Shown: positions 534-50,464 of the stretch, in pieces
Numbering within the stretch: the first letter of the stretch is position 1
Layout of the letters: each line of letters begins with the position of its first letter
From: Polyangiales bacterium
GTDB lineage: Bacteria; Myxococcota_A; Polyangia; Polyangiales; Ga0077539
Reading direction: 5' to 3'
DNA length: 64,000 nt
NCBI GenBank assembly: GCA_046351535.1
Contig: JAXLYG010000023.1
Location: 64,001 to 128,000 of the forward strand
Notes under the pieces: generated by a model
Database searches by the model: none
Told to the model about the DNA's origin: nothing
What the model saw: only the letters and a program-made list of their open reading frames with translations
Made by a program: the position numbers and the translations under genes

Positions 534-3500
534 TCAGTTCCAGGTCTCGGCGCCGTGGCAGGCGGGGTCGCAGGTGAGTCGACCCGTGGGGGTGTACGTG
601 CCGCCGCGACGGAGCGAGACCTCCTTGAGCCCGTTCACGTGGAGGTTCAGCCCGATGATGGTGTTCGTCGCGCTGACCACCGTGTTGTGGCACTCGTTGC
701 ACGCGATGTGCTGCGAGATGACGTGACGGCGGTGCTGGCCTGACATCGTCCACGAGGCCGTGGGCGTGGTCGCGTCGTTGTGGCACGACGCGCAGGTGAG
801 CGTCGCGGGCGTTCCCCACACGATGGCGCCGTTCGAGGCCCTGCCGTTGCCGTGGCAGTACGAGCTCGCGCAGCGGCCCGTCGCGAGGTCATAGCTGCCC
901 GTGGGGTTGAGCGAGTCGAAGACCACCTCGGCGCGTCCGTCGCCGTCGATGTGTCCGGCGGAGAGCGCGTTGGCGGGCGTCGTGTGGCAGCGCGTGCAGT
1001 TCCACGCGAGGTGCGTCGCGGTGTTCTGCACGTGCGAGGTGTGAGCGCCGACGGCCAGCGTGGTGCGCGCGGTCTCGTTGCGGATGCCCACGGGCGGCGC
1101 GCCGGTCATGTTGTCGGTGCCGCCGTGACAGAGCGTGCAGCTCGTCTGCCAGCCCGCGGTGTGACACGACGAGCTCGAGCACGAGACGCGCGAGCCTCCG
1201 CCGTCGAGGGCGGCGCCGTGGCACTCCTGGCACTGGGTGATGCCCGTGGTGTTCACCGCGACGCCGTGCGGAGCACCGCGCCAGCCGGTGCTGTGAACGA
1301 GGTTCGACTCGACGATGCCGTTGATGTGCAGCGACGGCGCGGTGAAGACGCGCCCCGGACCGATCACGGCGCTGTGACACACCTCGCAGCGCGTGAGCGC
1401 GTAGTGGGTGCCTCCGGGGGGAAGTCCGTGACACGTCCCGCACGCGACCTGCGTCCCGTCGACGCGCGTCCATGTGGGCGTGGTGACGGTGCCGCCGGGC
1501 TGGAGCGTCGTGCCGTGGCAGTAGGTGTTGGCGCAGGTGGTCCCGTTCCACGCTGGCGTGGCGCGGTCGGCGGCGGCGAGCGTGCCCCAGGTGAGCTCCG
1601 CGGGACGCGCGGTGTCGAGGTGTCCGGGCGCGGTCACGCGCGACGGAACGACGTGGCACTCGGTGCAGTTGATGGGCGCCCTCCACGTCGACGCGTTGAG
1701 GTGGTTGCGATGCGCGCCCACGGAGCGGAGGGTGGTCGCGGTGCCGCCCGAGGTGTCCCTCGGCGGCGCGGGATTTCCAGGGCTCCCGTGACAGGAGTCA
1801 CACGCTGCGGCGGTCACGTCGACGACGCCGTTGATGTGTCGCGCGGCGTTGATGATGACGCGTCCGGGGCCCACCACGTCGCCGTGACACGCCTCGCAGC
1901 GATCGTTCATCGGGTGCGTTCCCCCGGGCGGAAGTCCGTGGCACGTCCCGCACGCGGCCTGCGTCCCGTCGACGCGCGCCCACGTGGGGTTGGTGTTCGT
2001 TCCGCCGGTGAGAAGCGTCGCGCCGTGGCAGTAGGTGTTCGAACACGTCGTGCCGTTCCACACCGGCGTGGCGCGGTCGGTGGTGGCGAGCGTGCCCCAG
2101 GTGAGCTCCGCGGGGCGCGCGGTGTCGAGGTGTCCGGCGGAGGTCACGCGCGACGGAACGAGGTGGCACTCGGTACACGCGATGGGCGCCCTCCACGTCG
2201 ACGCGTTGAGGTGGCTGCGGTGCGCGCCCACGGTGCGAAGGGTGGTCGCGGTGCCGCCCGAGAGGTCCGTCGGAGGCGCAGGGCTTCCACCGCCGCCGTG
2301 ACAGGTCTCGCATCCGGGGAGCGTGACGTTGACCACGCCGTTGATGTGCAGCGAGGGCGCGACGAAGACGCCGCCAGGGCCGATCACGTCGCCGTGACAC
2401 GCCTCGCAGCGGGTGTTCATGGGGTGTGATCCGCCGGGCGGAAGCCCGTGGCACGTCCCGCACGCGGCCTGCGTCCCGTCGACGCGCGCCCACGTGGGCG
2501 CCCTGTTGGTGCCGCCGGGGAGGAGCCCCGCGCCGTGGCAGTAGTTGTTCGTGCAGGTCGTCCCGTTGAACACGGGGGAGACGCCGCGCGTGGTGGCGCG
2601 CGCGCCCCAGGTGAGCTCCGCGGGGAGCGCCGTATCGATGTGCCCCGCGGCGGTCAGCGTCGAGGGGACGGTGTGGCAGTCCACGCACGCGATCCCGGCT
2701 CTCCAGGTCGACGCGTTGAGGTGACTCCGATGCGCGCCGACGCCGCGGAGGGTCGTGGCGGTGCCGCCCGTGGTGTCCCTCGGAGGCGCTGGATTTCCAG
2801 TGCTTCCGTGGCAGGTGTCGCAGGTCGGCGTGGTCACGTCGACGACGCCGTTGATGTGCCGCGCGGGGTTGGTGATGAGCATCCCCGCGCCGACGACGTC
2901 GCCGTGACAGAGCTCGCAGCGCGTCGATGTGGGGTGCGTGCCGCCGGGCGGCAGTCCGTGACAGGTGCCGCACGTCGCCTGCGACCCGTCGACGCGCGCC
3001 CAGATCGGCGTGGTGTTCGAACCGCCGGGGAGCAGCGTCGCGCCGTGGCAGTACGTGTTCGAACACGTCGTTCCGTTCCACACGGGGACGGCGCTGTCGG
3101 TGGTCGCGCGCGCGCCCCACGAGAGCTCCGCGGGCAGGGCCGTGTCGTTGTGTCCGGGCGATGCGACGGACCCGGGCACGAGGTGACAATCCGAGCACTC
3201 GATGGGCGCGCGCCACGTCGACGTGCGCAGGTGGTTGCGATGCGCGCCGACGCCTCGCAGGGTGGTCGCGGTGCCGCCCGTGGTGTCGCGCGGCGGAGAC
3301 GGATCGCCCGCGCCGCCGTGACACCCGTCGCAGCCCGTGATGGCGACCTCGACCTGACCGTTGATGTGAAGCCTCGGGTTCACGAAGACGCGTCCGGGTC
3401 CGATGACCTCGCCGTGACAGGTCTCGCACTGATCGCCGACAGGGTGACGCCCGCCGGGAGGCAGGCCGTGACACGTCCCGCACGCGGCCTGGGAGCCGTC

Positions 3501-4715
3501 GACGCGGGACCACGTGGGCGCGGTGTTCGAACCGCCGGGGAGCAGTCCGCCGCCGTGGCACCAGGTGTTCGTGCAGGTCGTCCCGTTGAAGGTCGGGGTG
3601 ACGCCGCGCGTGGTCGCGAGCGCGCTCCACGTAAGCTCCGCGGGCAGCGCGGTGTCGATGTGGCCCGCCGCGGTGATGCTCGACGGAACCGTGTGGCAGT
3701 CGTTGCACGCGATGTCGCGATGCGTGGTGCTCGGCGCGAGGTGGCTGCGATGGGCGCCGACCCCGCGGAGGGTCGTCGCGGTGCCGCCCGCGGTGTCTCT
3801 CGGAGGCGCGGGATTGCCCGCTCCGCCGTGGCAGACGTCGCAGCCCGAGATGCTGAGGTCGACGTGACCGTTGATGTGGAGCCGCGGGTTCACGAAGGTC
3901 ATGCCGGGTCCGATGACGTCGGCGTGACAGGTCTCGCACTGCATGTTGTTGGGGTGACCGCCGCCGGGCGGGAGTCCGTGACACGTGCCGCAGGTCGCCT
4001 GCGAGGTGCCGTCGGCGTTGGCCCACGTGGGCGTCGTGTTGGTGCCTCCGGGGAGCAGCGTCGCGCCGTGGCAGTACACGTTCGTGCAGCGCGTCCCGTC
4101 GAACGCGGGCATCGCGCCGTCGGAGGTCGCGACGGCGCTCCAGGTGAGCTCCGCGGGCCTCGGCGAGTCGATGTGACCGGGATCGGTGAGGTCGGTGGGG
4201 ACGCGGTGACAGTCGTCGCACTGCACCTCGCGGTGGTTCCTCCCTGCGCGCAGGTGGGCGCGGTGGGCGCCGACGCCACGCGCGGTGGTCACGCGCTCGG
4301 ACATGAGACTCCTCGGCGGCGCGGGGCTCTCGTAGTCGCCGTGGCAGAGCGAGCACTCGCCGGGCGTCGTGTCGACGTCCATCCCCGCTTCGAGCGCTGC
4401 TTCGGGCGCCACGTCGGCGCTCGCGTCCATCTCCGCGTCGAGCACCTCGACGTCCATCGCGGTGACGTCGAGCGCGGTGGCATCTCCGTCGTCTGCGTCC
4501 GCGATCTCCGCGGCGGCGTCGACGAGCTCGTCGCCGGTATCGCTCGCTTGCACATCGTCGCGCGCGCTGTCGACGGCGACGTCGAGCGACGCGGTCACGT
4601 CTTCGCTGCGAACGTCCGCGGCGCTCACGTCGGGGCTCTGAGAGCCGCCCGATCCGGTGTCCGCGCACGACACCAGAAACGCTACCAGGAGCATCAACCA
4701 CGCAGAGCGAGGCAT
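534..4715 (-). CDS. giant multiheme c-type cytochrome lipoprotein with about 7 tandem C-x4-CH...CxxCH modules
   Basis: 1393 aa. N-terminus MPRSAWLMLLVAFLVSC with lipobox LVSC, then an acidic linker. About 30 CxxCH haem-binding motifs (CGTCHG, CETCHG, CDVCHGG, C[ND]DCH...) plus C-x4-CH (CTNVYCHG, CTNTWCHG), recurring in modules of roughly 165 aa that each begin TATTLRGVGAHR[SN]HL. Confidence 0.85.
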   Translation of the reverse strand: MPRSAWLMLLVAFLVSCADTGSGGSQSPDVSAADVRSEDVTASLDVAVDSARDDVQASDTGDELVDAAAEIADADDGDATALDVTAMDVEVLDAEMDASADVAPEAALEAGMDVDTTPGECSLCHGDYESPAPPRSLMSERVTTARGVGAHRAHLRAGRNHREVQCDDCHRVPTDLTDPGHIDSPRPAELTWSAVATSDGAMPAFDGTRCTNVYCHGATLLPGGTNTTPTWANADGTSQATCGTCHGLPPGGGHPNNMQCETCHADVIGPGMTFVNPRLHINGHVDLSISGCDVCHGGAGNPAPPRDTAGGTATTLRGVGAHRSHLAPSTTHRDIACNDCHTVPSSITAAGHIDTALPAELTWSALATTRGVTPTFNGTTCTNTWCHGGGLLPGGSNTAPTWSRVDGSQAACGTCHGLPPGGRHPVGDQCETCHGEVIGPGRVFVNPRLHINGQVEVAITGCDGCHGGAGDPSPPRDTTGGTATTLRGVGAHRNHLRTSTWRAPIECSDCHLVPGSVASPGHNDTALPAELSWGARATTDSAVPVWNGTTCSNTYCHGATLLPGGSNTTPIWARVDGSQATCGTCHGLPPGGTHPTSTRCELCHGDVVGAGMLITNPARHINGVVDVTTPTCDTCHGSTGNPAPPRDTTGGTATTLRGVGAHRSHLNASTWRAGIACVDCHTVPSTLTAAGHIDTALPAELTWGARATTRGVSPVFNGTTCTNNYCHGAGLLPGGTNRAPTWARVDGTQAACGTCHGLPPGGSHPMNTRCEACHGDVIGPGGVFVAPSLHINGVVNVTLPGCETCHGGGGSPAPPTDLSGGTATTLRTVGAHRSHLNASTWRAPIACTECHLVPSRVTSAGHLDTARPAELTWGTLATTDRATPVWNGTTCSNTYCHGATLLTGGTNTNPTWARVDGTQAACGTCHGLPPGGTHPMNDRCEACHGDVVGPGRVIINAARHINGVVDVTAAACDSCHGSPGNPAPPRDTSGGTATTLRSVGAHRNHLNASTWRAPINCTECHVVPSRVTAPGHLDTARPAELTWGTLAAADRATPAWNGTTCANTYCHGTTLQPGGTVTTPTWTRVDGTQVACGTCHGLPPGGTHYALTRCEVCHSAVIGPGRVFTAPSLHINGIVESNLVHSTGWRGAPHGVAVNTTGITQCQECHGAALDGGGSRVSCSSSSCHTAGWQTSCTLCHGGTDNMTGAPPVGIRNETARTTLAVGAHTSHVQNTATHLAWNCTRCHTTPANALSAGHIDGDGRAEVVFDSLNPTGSYDLATGRCASSYCHGNGRASNGAIVWGTPATLTCASCHNDATTPTASWTMSGQHRRHVISQHIACNECHNTVVSATNTIIGLNLHVNGLKEVSLRRGGTYTPTGRLTCDPACHGAETWN
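1265..4265. repeat. about 500-bp tandem DNA repeats (roughly 6-7 copies) encoding the cytochrome haem modules
   Basis: Near-identical peptide blocks recur in the sense frame. Antisense artefact ORFs are also near-identical to each other (1525..1791 and 2035..2301). Confidence 0.8.
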
Positions 4716-5014: not shown

Positions 5015-5794
5015 TCAGCGCGTCTTGCGACGCGGCTTCGCGGGCTCACAGAACATGATCGCGGACCACGTCGCGTCGATCGCGCAGACCTTCGAATCGG
5101 TGCGTCCCATCGCGCGCCCGACCTCGAGCACCACCATCGACGAGAGGTCCGACAGCGCGTCCGACGACTTCTTCCGCCACGCGATCCAGACGGGCGCTTC
5201 GCCCGCGCTGGTGATGATCCGCTCGACGTCGCGTTCGAGGTCCTCCGACGCGCGCACGAACCAGATCACCAGATCGCCGACGCCGCGCTCCCGCAGCTTC
5301 ACGCCCTCGGGGAGCTCGCCGAGCGCGTCTTCGAAGCCCGACGGCGCGTCGAGCATCACCACCGTGGCGCCGGGCTTGATCGCGAGCTTCTTCACGAGCG
5401 GCGTGTTCGAGGTCACCAGCGACTTGGGCACGTGAGGCTTCGCGAGCGGGTTCGCGAGGGTCGAACGCAGCGCGGCCTTCACCTTCGCCCAGGTGGTGTA
5501 GGTCGCGTCGGGGAGGAGCTTCTTCGCGCGCTCGATCTTCTCGGGTTCGCCGTCGACGAAGACGATGGCGACGTTGCGCCCCCACGCAGACTGACGGATC
5601 ACGGCCGCGAGCTGCGTCCCGTTCGACGGCGCGCGTCCGAGGTTGATCACCAGCGCCTCGGGGTCGCCGTCGCGGACGACCTTGATCGACCCGGCGTACG
5701 CGTCGGTCTTCACCGCGTGCCCCGCCGCTCGCAGCGCCTCGGCGCGCGCGTCGACCTCGTCGGCGTTGAAGTTGAGCAGGTGCACTCTCGCCAT
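5015..5794 (-). CDS. hypothetical protein, C-terminal half resembles DUF3052
   Basis: Plausible start MARVHLLNFNADEV at 5794; the longer ORF reaching 5875 would overlap the divergent neighbour. The C-terminal half (KPGATVVMLDAPSGFEDALGELPEGV...VWIAWRKK...KVCAIDATWSAIMF) matches the DUF3052 pattern as I recall it. Confidence 0.5.
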   Translation of the reverse strand: MARVHLLNFNADEVDARAEALRAAGHAVKTDAYAGSIKVVRDGDPEALVINLGRAPSNGTQLAAVIRQSAWGRNVAIVFVDGEPEKIERAKKLLPDATYTTWAKVKAALRSTLANPLAKPHVPKSLVTSNTPLVKKLAIKPGATVVMLDAPSGFEDALGELPEGVKLRERGVGDLVIWFVRASEDLERDVERIITSAGEAPVWIAWRKKSSDALSDLSSMVVLEVGRAMGRTDSKVCAIDATWSAIMFCEPAKPRRKTR

Positions 5795-5873
5795 GACGGA
5801 GCGAGTCGCTAACACACGGCGCAACCCCTCTGCCAGTTCGCGCGCCGCGGCATCCGTGCGACGATCGCCGCCC

Positions 5874-6953
5874 ATGCGCTACGCCCTCCTCTCCGCCGCG
5901 CTCTGCGTCGCGTGCTCCGGCGATCCCGCGGCGGCTCCCTCCGACGCCGCGGTCGACAGGGCCGCCGACGCGCCCGTCGTCGACGTGCCGGGCCCCATGT
6001 GCCCCGCCCCCCTCGGCACGGCGCGCCCGCGCACCGTCGCCCCCACCGCGGGCCCCATGGACGACGCCCTTCGGATGAACCACATCCAGCTCAAGGCGAC
6101 GCACAACAGCTATCACCTGCAGCCCACGCTCGACATCGCAGACTGGCGCTACAGCCACGCGCCGCTCGACGTGCAGCTCGATCAGCAGGGCGTCCGCGGC
6201 GTCGAGCTCGACCTCCACTGGAACATCCCGTGTGAGCGCTTCGAGGTCTATCACCTCGGCACCATCGACGACCTCACGACCTGCCGCGTCTTCACGACGT
6301 GCCTCGAGACGATCCGCGCGTGGAGCGACGCCCACCCCTCGCACCACCCGCTCTTCATCCACCTGGAGCCGAAGGACACCTTCGCCGTGAGCGCCAACGA
6401 GGCGCGCATCGCGTCGATGGAGCGCGAGATCCTGTCGGTGTTTCCGCGCGAGCTGATCGTGACGCCCGACGAGGTGAAGGGCGACGCCGCCACGGTGGCC
6501 GACGCCGTTCGCACGCGGGGATGGCCCACCCTGCGAGCCTCTCGCGGCCGCGTGCTGTTCTACATCGACCGCACCGACGCCTTCCGCGACGCGTACACGC
6601 ACGGCGGCCACGACCTCAACGGGCGCGTGGCCTTCGTCGACTCCGAGATGACCGACCCCTTCGGCGCGATGCTCGTGCTCAACGATCCCTCACGCTCGGC
6701 TGACATCATGGCCGCGGTGCGCGCCAACTTCATCGTGCGGGTGTTCTCGTGGACGGCGCCCGGTCCCGACGACGCCCACACGCCGGCCCTCGCGCTCGCG
6801 ACGGGCGCGCAGATCATCAGCACGGACTTTCCTGCGATGGCGCCCGGCGTGAGCGCGTGGGTCGACATCATGGGCGGCACGCCCTCTCGCTGCGACCCCG
6901 TGAACGCGCCCGCGGGATGCACCTCCGCGGCGATCGAGTCGCTCGCGCGCTGA
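5874..6953 (+). CDS. PI-PLC X-domain-like phosphodiesterase, probable lipoprotein
   Basis: Internal start MRYALLSAALCVACSG (signal/lipobox-like). Motif LKATHNSYH...VELDLHWN is typical of the phosphatidylinositol-specific phospholipase C X domain. Confidence 0.7.
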   Translation: MRYALLSAALCVACSGDPAAAPSDAAVDRAADAPVVDVPGPMCPAPLGTARPRTVAPTAGPMDDALRMNHIQLKATHNSYHLQPTLDIADWRYSHAPLDVQLDQQGVRGVELDLHWNIPCERFEVYHLGTIDDLTTCRVFTTCLETIRAWSDAHPSHHPLFIHLEPKDTFAVSANEARIASMEREILSVFPRELIVTPDEVKGDAATVADAVRTRGWPTLRASRGRVLFYIDRTDAFRDAYTHGGHDLNGRVAFVDSEMTDPFGAMLVLNDPSRSADIMAAVRANFIVRVFSWTAPGPDDAHTPALALATGAQIISTDFPAMAPGVSAWVDIMGGTPSRCDPVNAPAGCTSAAIESLAR

Positions 6954-7840: not shown

Positions 7841-10117
7841 TTACTGCTGCGCGAAGGCGTTCGTCGGCACGGGGAAGCGCCACAGCATGTCGTTCACGGC
7901 GACGCCCGCGCGGTTGACCCTGACGTTCTGCCAGGTCTCGACGCCCGATCCGTCTTCGCTCTGCATCGAGGCCCTGTTCTGGGCGTACTGGTCGATGAGG
8001 TACTGCGAGAGCTCGCCCGCGCGCACGGCGTTGTCGTGGTTGTGATCGGCCTCGCTCACGCCGCGCCGCAGGAAGTACGAGAGATACCCGCCGGCCTGAA
8101 AGCGCTGCGCGACGTTCGAGAGCACGTCCTCCTCGGAGGAGTACATCCCGAAGCGGTTGGGCGCGTCGTTGAAGGCCCGTTCGAAGCCGCCCGAGAAGCA
8201 GCTGTCGAGCGCGAGCATGTTCACGTCGGCGCGGATGTTGTCGAACATCGTCGCCATCTGGTGCGAGTCGATCTCGCCGTCGCGGAGCACGATGCTCTCG
8301 ACGAAGCCGTCGGGGTCCGCGCGGCGGTCGCTCGACGGCCTGCGGTTGCCGTGGCCCGAGTGGAAGAACATGAACACGTCGTTCGGTCCGACGCGCCCTG
8401 CCATCTGCTGAAAGGCCTGCTGCACGGCGCCCGTGGTGGCCTCGGCGTCGGTGAGCACGATGAACTGCGCCGTGCCCGCGAGGTGCGCGTTGAGGTAGGC
8501 CTGCGCGAGCTGACGCGCGTCGTCGGCGCAGCCGAAGAGGTTGCCGCGGCCGCCGTAGTCGGTGATGCCCGTGAAGATGCCGTACATGTTGCCCGCGCCC
8601 TGACGGCCCGCGACGTTGCCCGTGGGGACGCCGTTCTGACCGACGCGCGGCGCCTCGGAGGTGCGCGCGGTGAGCGTGAAGGGCCCCGTCGCGCCCTGGC
8701 GGTACGACGACACCTCGACGCGGTACGTCCCCGCGGCGGGGAGCGTGACCTGGATGGTGCTGTTGGTGTCGGCCTGCGTGGTGTCGTCGTTGTTCCAGCG
8801 CTGGCCGCTCGGGGCGATGAGGGCGAGCGTGGTGTCGAAGGCCGACGACTCGAGGCGCAGGGTGACCATGGCCCCGGCCTGTCCTTCGAGGCGATAGGCG
8901 CGCACGTAGCGCCCGCCCGACGACGGATCACCGGGCGAGAGGTACTCGTTCACGGGCGTGTTGGCCGCGAGCGTTCCGCCTGCGCCCACCTGGGCGTCGG
9001 GCGTCGGGGTGTTGTTGTTGTTGCCCACCACGACCATCCCCTGCCCCGGCTCTCCCGCGGTGACCTGCACCGTGTAGGCGCCCGTCGCGCCAGGCTGGTA
9101 CGAGGTCACCACCACGCGGTAGCGACCGTCGATGGGGGCCGTGAAATCGAGGCGAGAGTTGAGATCGCTCTGCGCGATGTCGTCGTTCTCCATCGCCTCA
9201 CCCGCAGGCGGCACCACGCGGAGGAGCGTGTCGAAGGCCGAGCTCTGGAGCGACACGATCGCGCGCTGTCCGCGGCGCAGCGAGATCTGGTGCTCGCGTT
9301 CGAAGCGTCCCTCACGGTCGCGGTTTCCGTCGGGGCCGAGCGAGCCCTGAAAGGTCTGCGACGCGGGGTTCGTGTTCGCGGGCTGCGGCGCCACGTCGGG
9401 CTGCTCCCCGGGCTGCGGCTGCGCGACTGGAGGCTGTCCGCCGGGGCCCGGAATGGGCTGCATCGAGGGCATTCCGGGCTGCATCCCGGGCTGCATCGGG
9501 ACGGGCTGCATCCCCGGCTGCGTGCCGGGCATGGGCTGCATCGACGGCATTCCGCCGGGCTGCGCGCCGGGCATCGGAATGGGCTGCATCGACGGCATCC
9601 CGGGCTGCGTGCCGGGCATGGGCTGCATCGAGGGCATCCCCGGCTGCGTGCCGGGCATGGGCTGCATCGAGGGCATTCCCCCGGGCTGCGCGCCGGGGGC
9701 GGGAATGGGCTGCATCGAGGGATAGGGCTGCATCCCTGCGCCGGGCATGGGCTGCATGCCGGGCTGCATCGGAACGGGCTGCATCCCCGGCGTCGGCGGG
9801 TTGATGGGGATCATCGTGCCCGCGGGATAGGGATTGTCAGGCTGTCCGTTGGGATACCACTCGGGGCGCACGCGGTTGCGCTCGTCGTCGTCGTTGGTCT
9901 TGTCGGCGGGAGGCTTCACGCGCCCCTCGGTCACGCCGATCGAGAGCGACACGCCCGCGCCTCCAGGCTGCTGCGCGCCGGGACGGAGCGCGTTGGGACC
10001 GGGCTGCACCGCGGGCGTGTTGCGCGGCTGGCGCTGCTCCGAGCGTCGACACGAGAGGCCGTGAGCGGAGAGCACGACGAGCGCGACGACGAGAGGACGA
10101 AGAGGCGTGTGGTTCAT
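7841..10117 (-). CDS. secreted caspase-like (peptidase C14) protein with Pro/Met/Gln-rich repeat region and two PPC-like beta domains
   Basis: Start at 10117 (MNHTPLRPLVVALVVLSAHG, signal peptide) with GAGGAA RBS 7 nt upstream. C-terminal caspase dyad FFHSGHG (His) and DSCFSGG (Cys). Two beta domains resemble the pre-peptidase C-terminal domain (…YRVVVTSYQPGATGAYTVQV; …YRVEVSSYRQGATGPFTLT). Confidence 0.8.
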   Translation of the reverse strand: MNHTPLRPLVVALVVLSAHGLSCRRSEQRQPRNTPAVQPGPNALRPGAQQPGGAGVSLSIGVTEGRVKPPADKTNDDDERNRVRPEWYPNGQPDNPYPAGTMIPINPPTPGMQPVPMQPGMQPMPGAGMQPYPSMQPIPAPGAQPGGMPSMQPMPGTQPGMPSMQPMPGTQPGMPSMQPIPMPGAQPGGMPSMQPMPGTQPGMQPVPMQPGMQPGMPSMQPIPGPGGQPPVAQPQPGEQPDVAPQPANTNPASQTFQGSLGPDGNRDREGRFEREHQISLRRGQRAIVSLQSSAFDTLLRVVPPAGEAMENDDIAQSDLNSRLDFTAPIDGRYRVVVTSYQPGATGAYTVQVTAGEPGQGMVVVGNNNNTPTPDAQVGAGGTLAANTPVNEYLSPGDPSSGGRYVRAYRLEGQAGAMVTLRLESSAFDTTLALIAPSGQRWNNDDTTQADTNSTIQVTLPAAGTYRVEVSSYRQGATGPFTLTARTSEAPRVGQNGVPTGNVAGRQGAGNMYGIFTGITDYGGRGNLFGCADDARQLAQAYLNAHLAGTAQFIVLTDAEATTGAVQQAFQQMAGRVGPNDVFMFFHSGHGNRRPSSDRRADPDGFVESIVLRDGEIDSHQMATMFDNIRADVNMLALDSCFSGGFERAFNDAPNRFGMYSSEEDVLSNVAQRFQAGGYLSYFLRRGVSEADHNHDNAVRAGELSQYLIDQYAQNRASMQSEDGSGVETWQNVRVNRAGVAVNDMLWRFPVPTNAFAQQ
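9372..9800. repeat. degenerate tandem repeats encoding a PGMQP[MV]PG-like low-complexity tract in the caspase gene
   Basis: Repeating ggctgcatc...ccgggc units. The antisense ORF shows the repeat (GCIEGIPGC)n. Confidence 0.7.
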
Positions 10118-12235: not shown

Positions 12236-13978
<1,743 letters not shown>

Positions 13979-18467: not shown

Positions 18468-21065
18468 ATGCTGTTCGCGGATCCTGTCGCCACCGTACAG
18501 GGGCTGACCATCTTTCGGGATTGGTCTAACAAGGGCCAGTATTACTACCTCCCGCCGGAGGTGCCGCGCCTCGCGAAGGTGCCGGGCGACGAGCGTCGAT
18601 ACGCGCTGCGCCTCACGCTCTGGCGCCGCGACCTCAGCGAGACCGCGCCGCAAGGCATGGACGACGTGGGGGGCTTCCTCGACTTCGACGTCGACCTCGG
18701 CGTGTCGGACAAGACCATCGAGGCGGCGACGCGAGAGCTCGAGCAGAAGATGGGCGGCACCGTGGTGCTCGCGCAGGCGCCCTTCCTCGACGGCGAGGTC
18801 GACCTCACCATCCTCGGGCGCCGCAGCACCGACGAGGCGAGCGCCGACTCGCAGTTCGTACGCCGCGTGCTGGGCTCCTCGCGCCCGACGCTCTACGGCT
18901 CGCAGCGGGCGTCGTTCAGCGTGGTGCTCGACCGATCGGGCGCGGCCTTCATGCACGACGCGATCATGCAGGGCGGCGCGATGCACGCCATCGTGCGCTA
19001 CCGCCTCAAGTACTCGGCCATCAGCCCGGCGTACGCCCTCCACGTGAAGATCCACCAGGAGAAGTGCCTCGAGCACCTCGCCTGGCGCCTCGGCCTCAGC
19101 GTGGGAACGGGGAGCGGCAACACGACGGCCGGAAGCACCCGCGACACCGCCGCGAGCACCAGCGCGCAGACCACCGGCGCGAACACCGCGTCGACGACCT
19201 CGGGCACCAACTCCAGCAACACGTCGAACAGCGCGCAGACCGGCAACACGTCGAGCACGGCCTTCATGGCGAAGGCCTCGCTCAGCCAGGTGATCGACGA
19301 GCTGAGGGAGAAGCGCGCCATCGAGATCAACGAGAGCGACTTCGTCGCCAGCGATCACCCGCAGACCGCGACCAACCAGGAGGCGATCAACACCATCATC
19401 GCGGGGCTCATGGGCTCCACGTGGTTCACGCCGTCGCTGACGCTCCCGTCTCAGCTCACCAACCTCACGAGCCAGCCCGCGGCGAACACGACGCCAACCA
19501 ACACGCCGACCACCAACACGCCGAACAGCTCGACGACGACCAACACGCCGAACAGCTCCACGACGACCAACACGCCGAACAGCTCGACGACGACCCCCAC
19601 CGATACGAAGACCACCACCGCCACCAGCACGAAGGACAGCTCGAGCAACCAGTCGAAGAACTCGCAGCTCACGGCGAGCGTCGAGTTCAACCTCGAGATG
19701 GTCAAGCAGACCGAGCTCAGGGACGCCGAGTACGACCTGCGTACGAACAAGGCGATGCCCCACGAGATCTTTCCGCAAGGCGAGATCGTGCTCGACGTGC
19801 CCCCGGACGAGGCCGCGACGTACGTGCTCCTGGCGGACCTGCGCGACGACTTCTTCCAGAAGGTGCGCGTCCACGCGTCGACGACCGCGCAGTGGGAGCG
19901 CGACGGCATCGAGGCCATTCGCATCGAGCTCCGGTACGGCCCGCGGCCCGACGGCTCCTTCGCCATCTACGACGAGATCAAGCTCGTGCGCGACGCGGTC
20001 ACGGGCACCAAGGAGTTCTTCACGCTCCGCGACCGCGACAACGCCGACGGGCAGCCCCTGGTGCTCTGGTACGACTACCGCGTCACCACGCACTACCGCC
20101 CCGATGTGGCCCTCGGCGATCAGACCAGCGCCATCGTCAGCGTCGACGTGCCCGGCGCCACGCCCGACGGGTGGATCCGCGCCACCGCGCGCAACCTCGT
20201 GATCTCGCCGCGCGACGCGACGCCCGTACGCCCCGTGCGCCTCTCCGCGGGCCTGCTGCGCTTCGACCTCCTCGACGCCGTGCAGGTCGACGTGCGCTAC
20301 GACACGTTCCATCAGACCTTCAGGCTGGTGGAGGGCAAGCACGACTATGACTTCGTGATCCGCCCTCGCCGCGGCGACCCGACGCCCGTCTTCGAAACGC
20401 GCGGCACGTTCATGTACAAAGACGGCGCGCGCGTCGAGCTCCAGCCGGCCACGTGGCGCCAGAACGAGGTCATCGTCGACGAGCTCCGCGAGCACGTCCT
20501 CCGGGTGCAGGTGATCGCCGCCGACCCCGAGAAGAAGTACGAGCGCATCCGCGTGTCGCTCCGCTACGAAGACGGCGAACACGTGGTCGAGCGCGACGTC
20601 GACCTCACGGAGGCGGCGCCCGTTCAGGACTGGTCGGTGCGCCTCGAGCACCCGACGAAGCGCGCGTACAAATACCGGGTCCTCTTGATCCCCAAGGGCG
20701 GCGTGCCCGTCGCCTCCGAGTGGAAGGACGGGACCGACACGCTCCTCGTCGTGGGCGTGCGCGCGATCGACGTCATCCCCATCACGGTGACGTACCTCGG
20801 GGAGTTCCCCGACCCCACGCTGCTCGCCCTCAAGATCGACCTCGAGTACCGCGACGACGCGAACAACATCTTGTGGTCGCGCGCCGAGCTCCTGCGCCAG
20901 AACACCCCGACATCGTTCGTCTGGCGCGTCCCCGTTCTCGACGTGAAGAAGCGCTCCTACCGCTGGCGCATCACGCCGTATCGCCCCGGCCGCGCGCCGC
21001 ACGCCCAACCCTGGAACGAAGACGAGACCAGCCCCGATCTCGTGATCATGCCGCCCACCGACTGA
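18468..21065 (+). CDS. paralog P2 of uncharacterized family, with T/N/S-rich low-complexity linker
   Basis: RBS GGGGAG 8 nt upstream. N-terminus MLFADPVATVQGLTIFRDWSNKGQYYYLPPEVP. Block VRYRLKYSAISPAYALHVKIHQEK. C-terminal beta modules (YRWRITPYRP). Confidence 0.7.
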   Translation: MLFADPVATVQGLTIFRDWSNKGQYYYLPPEVPRLAKVPGDERRYALRLTLWRRDLSETAPQGMDDVGGFLDFDVDLGVSDKTIEAATRELEQKMGGTVVLAQAPFLDGEVDLTILGRRSTDEASADSQFVRRVLGSSRPTLYGSQRASFSVVLDRSGAAFMHDAIMQGGAMHAIVRYRLKYSAISPAYALHVKIHQEKCLEHLAWRLGLSVGTGSGNTTAGSTRDTAASTSAQTTGANTASTTSGTNSSNTSNSAQTGNTSSTAFMAKASLSQVIDELREKRAIEINESDFVASDHPQTATNQEAINTIIAGLMGSTWFTPSLTLPSQLTNLTSQPAANTTPTNTPTTNTPNSSTTTNTPNSSTTTNTPNSSTTTPTDTKTTTATSTKDSSSNQSKNSQLTASVEFNLEMVKQTELRDAEYDLRTNKAMPHEIFPQGEIVLDVPPDEAATYVLLADLRDDFFQKVRVHASTTAQWERDGIEAIRIELRYGPRPDGSFAIYDEIKLVRDAVTGTKEFFTLRDRDNADGQPLVLWYDYRVTTHYRPDVALGDQTSAIVSVDVPGATPDGWIRATARNLVISPRDATPVRPVRLSAGLLRFDLLDAVQVDVRYDTFHQTFRLVEGKHDYDFVIRPRRGDPTPVFETRGTFMYKDGARVELQPATWRQNEVIVDELREHVLRVQVIAADPEKKYERIRVSLRYEDGEHVVERDVDLTEAAPVQDWSVRLEHPTKRAYKYRVLLIPKGGVPVASEWKDGTDTLLVVGVRAIDVIPITVTYLGEFPDPTLLALKIDLEYRDDANNILWSRAELLRQNTPTSFVWRVPVLDVKKRSYRWRITPYRPGRAPHAQPWNEDETSPDLVIMPPTD
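19513..19597. repeat. 27-bp tandem repeat x3 (TNTPNSSTT) inside P2 linker
   Basis: caacacgccgaacagctcgacgacgac repeated. Confidence 0.7.
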
Positions 21066-46792: not shown

Positions 46793-48403
<1,611 letters not shown>

Positions 48404-48410
48404 GCGCCCC

Positions 48411-49038
48411 ACTCATACCCCCGTCCCATCAGACCTGGACGTTTGCGTCGTTGCGCCGTCGGTTCGGCGTGGGAGGTCGAGGTGGGGTCTGGCAGCGCCG
48501 ATGGGCCGTCGGTTCGGCGTGGGAGGTCGAGGTGGGGTCTGGCGGCGTCGATGGCGAAGCACCAGTGGCGGAAGCTCGATGCGGGGCCGGGGTTCGGCGT
48601 GAGAGGTCGATGAGAGACTGGCTGTGCCGATGGCGAAGCGCCAGTGGAGGATGCTCGATGCGCCTCACCCCGGGCAACTGAAGGTGGTCACTCTCGCTTC
48701 GCGAGAGTTGCACGACGCGCAGAACGAACAGTCGCTGGTGTGGGCCGAAGCGATGCGGTTCACGAGCGCGAAACGATCGCAAGCAGAACGCCTGCAACTC
48801 CCGAAGGGAGTGACCACCTTCAGTTGCCCGGGGTGAGGCGCATCGAGCATCCTCCACTGGCGCTTCGCCATCGACACAGCCAGTCTCTCATCGACCTCTC
48901 ACGCCGAACCCCGGCCCCGCATCGAGCATCCTCCACGGGCGCTTCGCCATCGGCGCTGCCACTCCCCACATCGACCTCCCACGCCGAACCGACGGCGCAA
49001 CGACGCAAACGTCCAGGTCTGATGGGACGGTGGTATCA
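48411..49038. repeat. long near-perfect inverted repeat (arms about 215-280 bp, centre about 110 bp), MITE-like
   Basis: 48411-48697 is the reverse complement of 48809-49038 with a few mismatches. The left arm carries a 49-bp tandem duplication (gccgtcggttcggcgtgggaggtcgaggtggggtctggc… at 48462 and 48511). The ORF track shows mirrored ORFs on both strands, each starting MEDARCASPRATEGGHS. Confidence 0.85.
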
Positions 49039-49075
49039 CACGCAACTCCCCCGCCCTGCGATATCGTCGCGCGTG

Positions 49076-50464
49076 ATGCGCCGCGCAACGTCGTCCGGGG
49101 TCTCCGCGCTCGCCCTCGCGCTCTCCTTCGCGGGCGGAGCGAGCGCCAACAGCATGGTCACGCACGTGTGGGTCGCCGAGCAGGCGATCGAGCGCGTCGA
49201 AGCCGCTCCGCTGCGAGACATCGTGCGCGATCCGTCGCTGCGCGCGGTGATCCAGAACGGCGCGATCTACCCCGACTCGGGCTACTCGGTGCACGCCGAC
49301 TACGGCGAGTGGGCGCACTGGGAGAGCTTCATCGAGCCCTACCTCCAGTGGATCCGCGCGCGCTACGCCGCCGAGGGGTACCGCTCGCCCGACGCGCGGC
49401 GCCACGTGGCCTTTCTCATGGGCAACGCCGCCCACTCGATGACCGACCAGACCTTCGACCAGTACTTCGTCGAGCGCGTGCGACAGCACGATCACACCGA
49501 CGCCAACGACCTCGACATCGGCTCCGACACCTGGCTCATCATCGAGCACGGCGTCACGAGCGGCGCCGACGGCGCGTTCTGGTTCGACGAGATGCCCGCC
49601 ATCCACGAGGCCGTGCACGGCCCGATGGTGACGCCCGCGATGCTCCGTCAGGCCGCAGGGCTCACCGCGGGGGCGACGAACTTTCTCCCGCGCATCGCGC
49701 ACACGCTCTACGCGCTTCGCTGGCGGCAGATGCCGTGGGCCGGTTCGCACTACTGGGACCCCGCGACGCCCGGCTCGTATCCGCACCTCGTGAGCACCAC
49801 GGCGGCGTACTGGGATTTTCTCTGGATGCGCCTTCAGAACGCGGCTCCCGCCGATGCGGCGCCGCTCTATTCGTGGCCCGCGCCGGGGCAGACGAACTTT
49901 CCCGTCGACCACGCCGACATCGAGAGCCGCATCGTGGTGACCACCGCGTGGGGGCTCGACAACGCGACCGTCAACGCCTCGACCGTGCGCGTGCTCGGCC
50001 CCGACGGCGTCGCCCTCGACGCGCGCGTCTCCCGCTACGGCGACGAGGGAAACACCCTCATGGTGCGCACCACCGCGGACCTCGCGTTCAACACCGCGTA
50101 CCGCGTCGAGCTCTCGGGCACGATCCGCGCGCTCGCGGGACCCGCCATCGGCCACGCGCTCACGATCCCCTTTCGAACGCGCTGTGCGCCCGATCACCTC
50201 GGCGACTGTCCTGCCCTCCCGGTAGCCCTCCCGACGCTCGCGGATCCGCCTGTGAGCGATCCGCAGCCCCCCTCGGGCGTCGACGCGGGTGTCGGCCCGA
50301 TCACGATGGTCGACGACGCGGGGCGACCGACGAAGGTGCCCATGTCGCGCCCCATCGCAGCGAGCGAAGGCGGCTGCAACACGCGCGTCGGAAGGCGAGG
50401 AGACCTCGGCTTCGCAGCGCTTCTCGCGCTCTCGGTGGCCGCGCTTCGTCGACGGAGACGCTGA
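49076..50464 (+). CDS. zinc-dependent phospholipase C / S1-P1 nuclease superfamily-like exported protein with MYXO-CTERM-like tail
   Basis: Signal peptide MRRATSSGVSALALALSFAGGASA. THVWVAEQAI and HVAFLMGNAAHSMTD resemble the Zn-PLC H-x-W and H…D motifs. C-terminus GGCNTRVGRRGDLGFAALLALSVAALRRRRR (Cys + hydrophobic + basic). Confidence 0.55.
   Translation: MRRATSSGVSALALALSFAGGASANSMVTHVWVAEQAIERVEAAPLRDIVRDPSLRAVIQNGAIYPDSGYSVHADYGEWAHWESFIEPYLQWIRARYAAEGYRSPDARRHVAFLMGNAAHSMTDQTFDQYFVERVRQHDHTDANDLDIGSDTWLIIEHGVTSGADGAFWFDEMPAIHEAVHGPMVTPAMLRQAAGLTAGATNFLPRIAHTLYALRWRQMPWAGSHYWDPATPGSYPHLVSTTAAYWDFLWMRLQNAAPADAAPLYSWPAPGQTNFPVDHADIESRIVVTTAWGLDNATVNASTVRVLGPDGVALDARVSRYGDEGNTLMVRTTADLAFNTAYRVELSGTIRALAGPAIGHALTIPFRTRCAPDHLGDCPALPVALPTLADPPVSDPQPPSGVDAGVGPITMVDDAGRPTKVPMSRPIAASEGGCNTRVGRRGDLGFAALLALSVAALRRRRR

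Follow-up and report, generated by a model that had tools for sequence, protein, structure and literature searches.

A 626-bp inverted repeat in an uncultured Polyangiales genome is probably a copy of a foldback-type, MITE-like mobile element

Introduction

What is a hairpin with arms of more than 200 nt doing between two same-strand genes of a Polyangiales bacterium, and does it serve the host or is it mobile DNA that happens to have landed there? The question arises from a 64-kb stretch of a metagenome-assembled genome, the whole of which we call the window. An initial annotation of this DNA recognized the hairpin and proposed that it could be a terminator, an mRNA stabilizer or a non-autonomous transposable element. 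We address these proposals through the anatomy of the repeat, its relatives in other assemblies, the same site in close relatives and the pattern of change between its two arms. No paper describing MITEs in myxobacteria was found in the literature searched.

Extent and stability of the inverted repeat

Delimited by related copies and by empty sites (both described below), the element spans positions 48413..49038, 626 bp that on the minus strand read 5'-TGATACCACCGTCCCATCAGACC...GGTCTGATGGGACGGGGGTATGA-3'. In a three-copy alignment, similarity to the related copy L010 begins and stops exactly at TGATACC and GGTATGA, and the window element is inverted (minus strand) relative to the orientation common to L010 and the third copy, L008, hereafter the shared orientation. 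The perfect inverted repeat starts from ATACC (48415). The giant inverted repeat of about 630 bp that had been proposed here is therefore real, and its coordinates and description were right within 2–3 nt.

The element fills most of the spacer between two genes on the plus strand. Upstream lies the gene for an ABC-F type ATPase (46793..48403; two Pfam ABC_tran domains and ABC_tran_Xtn), the TGA stop codon of which (48401–48403) is intact and ends 9 nt before the element. Downstream lies the gene for a secreted protein (49076..50464) with a Big_5 domain and a weak, sub-threshold match to zinc phospholipase C; its ATG, at 49076, is 37 nt past the element and its product is identical to NCBI MFO0648816.1 (MAG, Polyangiales bacterium, 185-kb contig). 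The initial annotation had the position between an ABC-F and a phospholipase-C-like gene right, and only its spacings need correction, from 8 to 9 nt after the stop codon and from 38 to 37 nt before the ATG.

Read on the plus strand, the left arm (48413..48693, 281 nt) consists of a terminal module, an extra A module, two A–B pairs and an inner module, and the right arm (48808..49038, 231 nt) of an inner module, two B–A pairs and a terminal module. An ungapped repeat search resolves them into two pairs of segments, 48495–48693 with 48808–49006 (199 nt, 93% complementary) and 48415–48504 with 48947–49036 (90 nt, 96% complementary), in keeping with the near-perfect reverse-complement arms of 215–280 bp first described. 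The two pairs are offset in register because of a tandem duplication in the left arm only (48445..48544), the two copies of which (48445–48494 and 48495–48544) are 92% identical; TRF reports a period of 50, 2.0 copies and 96% matches. This duplication had also been noticed, although as 49 rather than 50 nt. Within each arm the unit CGATGGCGAAGCGCCAGTGGAGGATGCTCGATGCG occurs twice with a period of 79–80 nt, the degenerate repeat that had been pointed out, and between the arms lies a centre of 114 nt (48694..48807; about 110 bp had been claimed), which keeps its edges in common with L008 and L010 and is diverged and shorter in its middle.

The predicted hairpin is as stable as its arms suggest. 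RNA folding gives a ΔG of −574 kcal/mol for the plus strand and −571 for the minus strand (z = −27 and −37 against shuffles), and DNA folding gives −353 kcal/mol (z = −36). No shuffled sequence comes near the fold energy of the element, for which the initial annotation had suggested a very stable cruciform or RNA hairpin. Within the 64-kb window the element is by far the longest inverted repeat and is single-copy, with no recurrence of its terminal sequence or internal unit elsewhere in the window. Its base composition is 66% G+C, compared with about 70% G+C for the genome. The internal ORFs are mirror images of each other without a Pfam match and the centre is not conserved; the element has no coding capacity.

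Related copies in other assemblies

The relatives of the element came to light through its spurious translation. A 142-amino-acid ORF across it (48429–48857, minus strand), as a gene caller would read it, served as query. With phmmer against 1.8 billion representative proteins it retrieved P0041, itself a translated element within L008, and a profile search against 5.8 billion proteins retrieved P0043, a translated element within L010. L010 (ENA ERZ15186094) carries a clean copy of 461 bp at 652–1112, with arms of 92 nt at 98% and 65 nt at 97% complementarity. The L008 copy (ENA ERZ937806, activated sludge) is about 525 bp long, with a decayed left terminus and arms of 92 nt at 96% and 67 nt at 94%. 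The flanks of L008 and L010 have a G+C content of about 68–70% and bear no relation to the window or to one another. Hence the three copies found lie each in a different assembly and an unrelated context. All three are intergenic, and their orientation with respect to neighbouring genes is not constant. The family has so far been found only in an uncultured Polyangiales lineage of about 70% G+C.

Other searches returned nothing related. The exact patterns GGTTCGGCGTGRGAGGTCGA and CTCACCCCGGGCAACTGAAGG gave only chance matches in 185,579 GTDB species-representative genomes and IMG/VR, as did GGTTCGGCGTGRGAGGTCGA in JGI metagenomes; the matches L001–L003 and L009 lie inside coding sequence with no surrounding repeat and were set aside as fortuitous. 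There was no match to the element in plasmid and phage collections (blastn, distant mode) or in Rfam at E ≤ 1. Nor was an autonomous partner with matching ends found, pattern scans of public collections giving no related sequence. A fragment of an ISAzo13-family transposase in the conspecific contig L018 was considered as a parent and rejected, the one end visible there (the contig is cut at this point) being unlike the termini of the element.

Modular anatomy of the family

The alignment reveals a common, foldback-like build in which long arms, composed of a terminal sequence, one to three copies of A/B modules and an inner stem, flank a centre of 114–128 nt. Termini, A and B modules, inner module and apex palindromes are common to all three copies. 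In the shared orientation the left end reads 5'-TGATACCACCGTC(A/C)CATCA(A/G)ACCTGGACG... and the right end ...GGTATGA-3'; the window and L010 both have this terminal sequence and its complement, and it recurs at the right end of L008. Terminal inverted repeats are thus kept among copies, as they are in MITEs.

The A modules are about 50 nt long. Approximate pattern searches and direct-repeat families place their core, GGTTCGGCGTGGGAGGTCGAGGTGGGG (GGTTCGGCGTGGGAGGTCGATGTGGGG in the shared orientation), at 48461..48487, 48511–48537 and 48591–48617 on the plus strand and at 48884–48910 and 48964–48990 on the minus strand. The B modules, of about 30 nt, were located by repeat and pattern searches as CGAAGCGCCAGTGGAGGATGCTCGATGCG at 48634..48662 and 48555–48583 (plus) and at 48839–48867 and 48918–48946 (minus); their shared-orientation form is CGAAGCGCC.GTGG.GG.TGCTCGATGCG, and together with a preceding TGG they form a small local palindrome, TGGCG-AAG-CGCCA. 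The inner stem module, CCTCACCCCGGGCAACTGAAGG... (48663..48690, plus strand, partner 48811–48838; CCTCACCCCGGGCAACTGAAGG(G)TGGTC in the shared orientation), is the best conserved part of the family.

The number of modules varies between copies and also between the two arms of one copy. Counted from the terminus inwards, L010 has A–B in each arm, L008 has A–A–B in one arm and A–B in the other, and the window has A–A–B–A–B in one and A–B–A–B in the other. The copies, of 461, about 525 and 626 bp, are non-coding, which is likewise a property of MITEs. CGATG motifs are common to the module junctions, where they would favour slippage or unequal exchange of modules.

Two small apex palindromes, CTCCC-TTCG-GGGAG and its mirror image, frame the centre. 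In the window element, one of them reads ACTCCC-GAA-GGGAGT (48797..48811; on the minus strand CTCCC-TTCG-GGGAG) and has been kept in L008 and L010. At the other edge of the centre, sequence and alignment identify ACTCTCGC-TTC-GCGAGAGT (48690..48708, plus strand; ACTCTCGC-GAA-GCGAGAGT in the shared orientation), which in the window has lost pairing with its counterpart (alignment columns 272–275 and 430–433) and kept its self-complementarity, a single observation. L008 and L010 have centres that are 87.5% identical, whereas that of the window is 56% identical overall to the centre of L010 and has only its two edges in common with them. The family therefore comprises at least two subfamilies.

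The same site in close relatives

Proteins 95–99% identical to the downstream gene product gave access to this site in other strains, drawn from NCBI MAGs, ENA and Logan assemblies. The element is absent there in 11 contigs (L004, L011–L015, L016–L017, L018, L019 and L020) that represent six haplotypes. In these conspecific or sister strains, 56–60 nt separate the stop codon of the ABC-F gene from the start of the next gene, and they contain nothing of the element. One filled site, that of the window, thus stands against 11 empty contigs among relatives, the kind of contrast by which mobility of a MITE is judged. Since all six haplotypes, divergent ones included, are empty, insertion in the lineage of the window is the parsimonious reading. 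L018, one of the conspecific contigs with an empty site, comes from the activated-sludge sample that also yielded L008; in that population, therefore, this site is empty while the family occurs at another locus.

The junctions can be read directly against the empty sites, which run ...CCTCC(G/A)-CAC-ACATCTCCCTCGCCCTGCG..., compared with ...GCGCCC-CAC-[TCATACC...GGTATCA]-CAC-GCAACTCCCCCGCCCTGCG... in the window. At the right junction (49038|49039) homology restarts exactly at 49039, and from there to GCCCTGCG the window aligns with the empty sites without gaps, 19 of 22 positions being identical to L004. The left junction is less tidy, with 15–17 nt of every empty haplotype missing from the window. 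This loss, together with three differences from the empty sites within the 11 bases that follow the insertion on its right, means that the empty site is not a clean before-and-after pair.

The flanks also bear on where the arm mismatches came from. Their identity to the window is 93–95% for L004, 98.2% upstream and 96.3% downstream for L018, and 99.1% and 96.6% for L019. Arms that are only 93–96% complementary, within flanks 98–99% identical to those of empty-site strains, must have acquired their mismatches before the insertion. They must thus have come with a donor copy instead of arising in place, which rules out a fresh local palindrome. A recent insertion is the best explanation. A more distant relative (L006/L007, 80% protein identity) has an unrelated spacer of 190 nt; as a candidate remnant of the element it was rejected, its local alignment score of 21 equalling the shuffled mean of 21.7.

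Flanking triplets

In each of the intact copies the same triplet stands on both sides of the element. In the shared orientation the window reads GTG|TGATACC...GGTATGA|GTG, that is CAC on the plus strand at 48410..48412 and again at 49039..49041, the latter at the start of the ungapped alignment to the empty sites, which have a single CAC at the junction. L010 reads GAG|TGATACC...GGTATGA|GAG, and L008, with its decayed end, GAG|(decayed end)...GGTATCC|GTG, leaving the triplets GAG and GTG. A putative 3-bp target-site duplication accounts for both intact copies without mismatch and agrees with the ungapped right junction, and the identical triplets fit such a duplication without amounting to proof. 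Because all flanking triplets conform to GWG, each copy contributes about one informative base, and the evidence of the left CAC is weakened by the 15–17 nt missing to its left relative to all empty sites. An alternative parsing, an ATACC...GGTAT element with a 5-bp duplication, is less parsimonious, requiring one mismatch per duplication and a 2-nt indel relative to the empty sites.

Duplications of 3 bp are made by IS3, IS30, some IS5 subgroups and ISAzo13-type elements. As a pointer to the parent of the element these families are a lead. The ends of the element are TG...GA. In this they are unlike those of IS3, which are typically TG...CA.

Co-variation between the arms

The two arms have changed together. 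Between the window and L010, 148 stem pairs can be compared: 122 are identical and 14 have changed on one side, whereas 11 have changed on both sides with Watson–Crick pairing kept and one has changed on both sides with pairing lost. At a per-site divergence of about 13%, chance would yield about one compensatory pair. Across the three copies 19 pairs have changed on both sides, as against 10.8 ± 2.2 in shuffles (0 of 500 reach 19) and 1–5 in slid controls. Compensatory changes that keep a hairpin, the criterion applied to REPINs, are thus a feature of this family.

A strand-specific RNA signal was sought in the form of a wobble bias. The ungapped arm comparison has about 6 G·T and 6 A·C mismatches, and many of the mismatches are transversions. 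An apparent excess on RNAalifold pairs (23 G·T and 2 A·C) was discarded as an artefact that arises because the structure predictor admits G–U pairs. The co-variation points to DNA-level pairing or copying between the arms, or to a need for both ends to fit one protein, and not to a functional RNA.

Discussion

We conclude that the inverted repeat is probably a copy of a non-coding, non-autonomous, foldback-type MITE-like mobile element, a member of an undescribed family of 461–626 bp. Of the origins proposed by the initial annotation, the non-autonomous transposable element is supported by the 11 empty-site contigs, the two copies in unrelated contexts and the 3-bp flanking direct repeats of the intact copies. 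A locally evolved terminator or mRNA stabilizer, by contrast, is not supported as its origin in the face of conspecific strains that lack the element, the missing T-tract and the missing Rfam match.

In the lineage of this strain, a copy of the element would have inserted into the 56–60-nt spacer between the ABC-F and phospholipase-C-like genes, leaving both coding sequences intact. Insertion may have taken place in trans through a DDE-type transposase with a 3-bp staggered cut that would have produced the CAC/CAC pair; the specific combination of a DDE mechanism with a 3-bp duplication is a tentative proposal, about which we are somewhat more doubtful than confident. The repeated arm modules may represent multiple binding sites for this putative transposase. 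Arm-to-arm correction, whether by mismatch repair in the hairpin or by template switching, could maintain the complementarity of the arms, which might alternatively persist because the substrate of transposition has to pair.

For the flanking genes the insertion may have had consequences. Co-transcription of the two genes is plausible in strains with an empty site, in which they are 56–60 nt apart. A read-through transcript of the filled site would carry a duplex of about 280 bp, which would be expected to be blocking or to be cleaved, so that expression of the downstream gene would be uncoupled or destabilized. An effect on the transcripts of flanking genes is thus possible as a side effect of the element.

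A bolder form of the mobile-element reading sees in the family a bacterial counterpart of foldback transposons, in which the whole snap-back hairpin, modular arms and apex palindromes included, is moved and the arms are actively kept complementary. On this account the Myxococcota could harbour a novel type of mobile DNA that depends on a hairpin and may have an enzyme of its own, and the family would not be a simple deletion derivative of an insertion sequence; we regard this account as unlikely.

Somewhat less likely still is movement in single-stranded form, as for REPINs or derivatives of IS200/IS605, by a Y1/HUH transposase that recognizes the full stem and not the terminal repeats. The element is complementary over its full length, with a DNA hairpin of −261 to −353 kcal/mol, and its arms show compensatory changes as REPINs do (PMC3116915). 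Folding of a single strand could also be nucleated by small, very stable palindromes with GCGAAGC-type cores, which lie within the B modules and at the apex. But the element is five to six times the length of a REPIN, and the neighbouring genes that were checked include no Y1 transposase. Transposition of the IS200/IS605 and RAYT type is not known to leave a target duplication, and the identical triplets at both intact copies are unexpected under it. Moreover, template-switch correction of quasi-palindromes, an established process described in E. coli, could equally give rise to the co-variation of the arms and would yield the mirrored-arm pattern without selection.

That the host itself has selected the hairpin, as a terminator, an mRNA stabilizer, a precursor of long double-stranded RNA or some other structural or regulatory hairpin or non-coding RNA gene rather than selfish DNA, is improbable. 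The extreme stability predicted for both strands, the position exactly between two same-strand genes, the co-variation of the arms and the intergenic location of all three copies speak for such a function. The same site is nevertheless empty in 11 contigs of close relatives, the orientation to neighbouring genes varies, the centre is poorly conserved and wobble pairs are not favoured on one strand or the other among the stem mismatches (about 6 G·T to 6 A·C). Nor are the expected signals present: a scan of 48250–49200 on both strands yielded no sigma-70-like promoter and no intrinsic terminator, and Rfam no match. An intrinsic (Rho-independent) terminator is rejected specifically, there being no terminator-like hairpin with a T/U tract in 48250–49200 and the stem measuring about 280 bp, not 5–20. 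A retron msr–msd, a type of element known in myxobacteria, was likewise rejected, with no adjacent reverse transcriptase and no Rfam match at E ≤ 1, as was a REPIN or REP doublet (REP palindromes of about 20–40 nt in a hairpin of about 100 nt), the arms here being modular and 165–281 nt long.

An artefact of assembly or amplification (a hairpin chimera), or a de novo local inverted duplication, is effectively refuted even though long palindromes are a known class of artefact and the window derives from a metagenome-assembled genome, because the arms are imperfect (93–96%) and unequal by a 50-nt unit, unique flanks run on both sides, the element is unlike the local DNA of empty-site strains, and homologous elements occur in two independent assemblies from other samples.

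If confirmed, the mobile-element reading would mean a hitherto undescribed family of repeats in an uncultured Polyangiales lineage that is common in activated sludge, and with it an unusual bacterial foldback design of very long, modular, co-evolving arms in G+C-rich DNA. It would also show that a bacterial chromosome can tolerate a palindrome with a stem of about 280 bp. The SbcCD nuclease of E. coli attacks such palindromes unless their centre is long, which raises the question of whether the 114–128-nt centre makes the element viable. In practice, the element can serve to tell strains apart, and short-read assemblies are likely to break at it. Its translation by gene callers yields spurious proteins (P0041 and P0043), and an in-frame ORF that runs from 48644 through the right arm into the downstream gene could give that gene a false N-terminal extension in gene calls.

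Comparison with known systems

Prokaryotic MITEs are defined as elements of less than 500 bp that are AT-rich, have terminal inverted repeats of 4–30 bp and, in young copies, flanking direct repeats; they give rise to hairpin transcripts and are moved in trans by an insertion sequence (PMC10969869). The families compared were Correia/NEMIS, ERIC/IRU, RUP, Chunjie, QMITE and BrickBuilt (PMC10969869, PMC3184786). Like these, the present element is non-coding and intergenic, has terminal inverted repeats, forms one long hairpin, is present or absent according to strain and is flanked by short direct repeats. By the definition of PMC10969869 it behaves like a MITE, departing from it in size (461–626 bp as against typically less than 500 bp), in the length of the inverted repeat (165–281 nt per arm as against 4–30 bp) and in base composition (66% G+C as against the AT-richness usual in MITEs). 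One bacterial MITE, BrickBuilt, has internal tandem units whose number varies, as in the arms here (PMC4596501).

REPINs resemble the element in consisting of two inverted halves that form a hairpin, in their compensatory changes, and in being intergenic and non-autonomous (PMC3116915). They differ in being about 70–110 nt long, in numbering tens to hundreds of copies and in being linked to a single RAYT gene (PMC3116915); the length here is 461–626 bp. No target duplication is expected for REPINs, whereas the intact copies of the element have flanking triplets, and no RAYT was seen among the neighbouring genes checked. The correction of quasi-palindromes, which would carry a change in one arm over to its partner without selection, recalls the mirrored differences between copies of the element; it is, however, a mutational process and not a family of elements.

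The eukaryotic Foldback elements, Drosophila FB and its relatives, have long arms of tandem subrepeats, variable between copies and between ends, around a short non-repeated centre, and FB elements make duplications of about 9 bp. They belong to another domain of life and have no sequence relationship to the element. As an analogy, they are nonetheless its closest match in design, sharing with it arms of variable length built from subrepeats and a short centre.

Sequence around the insertion point

The junctions of the inverted-repeat element (window 48404–48412 and 49039–49052) were compared with the empty sites of four close-relative contigs (L004, L018, L019 and L020). Divergence from these contigs rises locally, immediately beside the insertion; the wider flanks are 96–99% identical. 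To the left, the 48404–48412 region carries a deletion of 15–17 nt relative to the four, and to the right, in the 49039–49052 region, three of the first 11 bases differ. This raised divergence could reflect repair at the insertion, or the import by recombination of an older, filled allele.

Several frames are open across the element, with window ORFs at 48429–48857 (− strand) and 48644–50464 (+ strand). The start of the latter at 48644, in frame with the downstream phospholipase-C-like gene, would add 144 spurious residues to that gene. Related copies of the element on contigs L008 and L010 are annotated by public gene calls as hypothetical proteins (P0041 and P0043; 209 and 245 aa). About 90 nt upstream of the L010 copy lies an array of approximately five tandem repeats of 42 nt (L010 345–560), each containing the palindrome CGCAACGGTTGCG; it has no sequence relation to the element.

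Variation in the conspecific strain

The phospholipase-C-like protein of the L018-type strain (P0051; L018 3537–5075) is 512 aa long versus the usual 462 aa, extending 50 aa beyond the usual ...ALRRRRR C terminus. The same extension is present in P0047, whose sequence is cut by the contig end. This points to loss of the stop codon or a frameshift. Synteny between L018 (ENA ERZ937806) and the window stops at window 50998. Beyond it follow a stretch judged by eye to be AT-rich (L018 ~5700–6400) and then a fragment of an ISAzo13-family DDE transposase (PF07592, E = 5e-83), which comprises its C-terminal 190 aa and stops ~25 nt short of the contig end. No similarity was seen between this part of L018 (5460–7032) and the element termini.

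Tandem repeats in the window

Tandem repeats at five window sites (9432–9736, 12292–12446, 19491–19595, 59275–59394 and 60685–60815) have periods of 24–126 nt, every one divisible by three, and these period lengths suggest possible repetitive coding sequence. Separately, a 1,393-aa ORF (window 534–4715, − strand) contains six tandem repeats of 510 bp (window 1309–4256) with mutual identities of 61–87%. Since its Pfam matches (Cytochrome_C7, GSu_C4xC__C2xCH and Cytochrom_c3_2) are multihaem cytochrome c units, its predicted product is a giant repetitive multihaem cytochrome.
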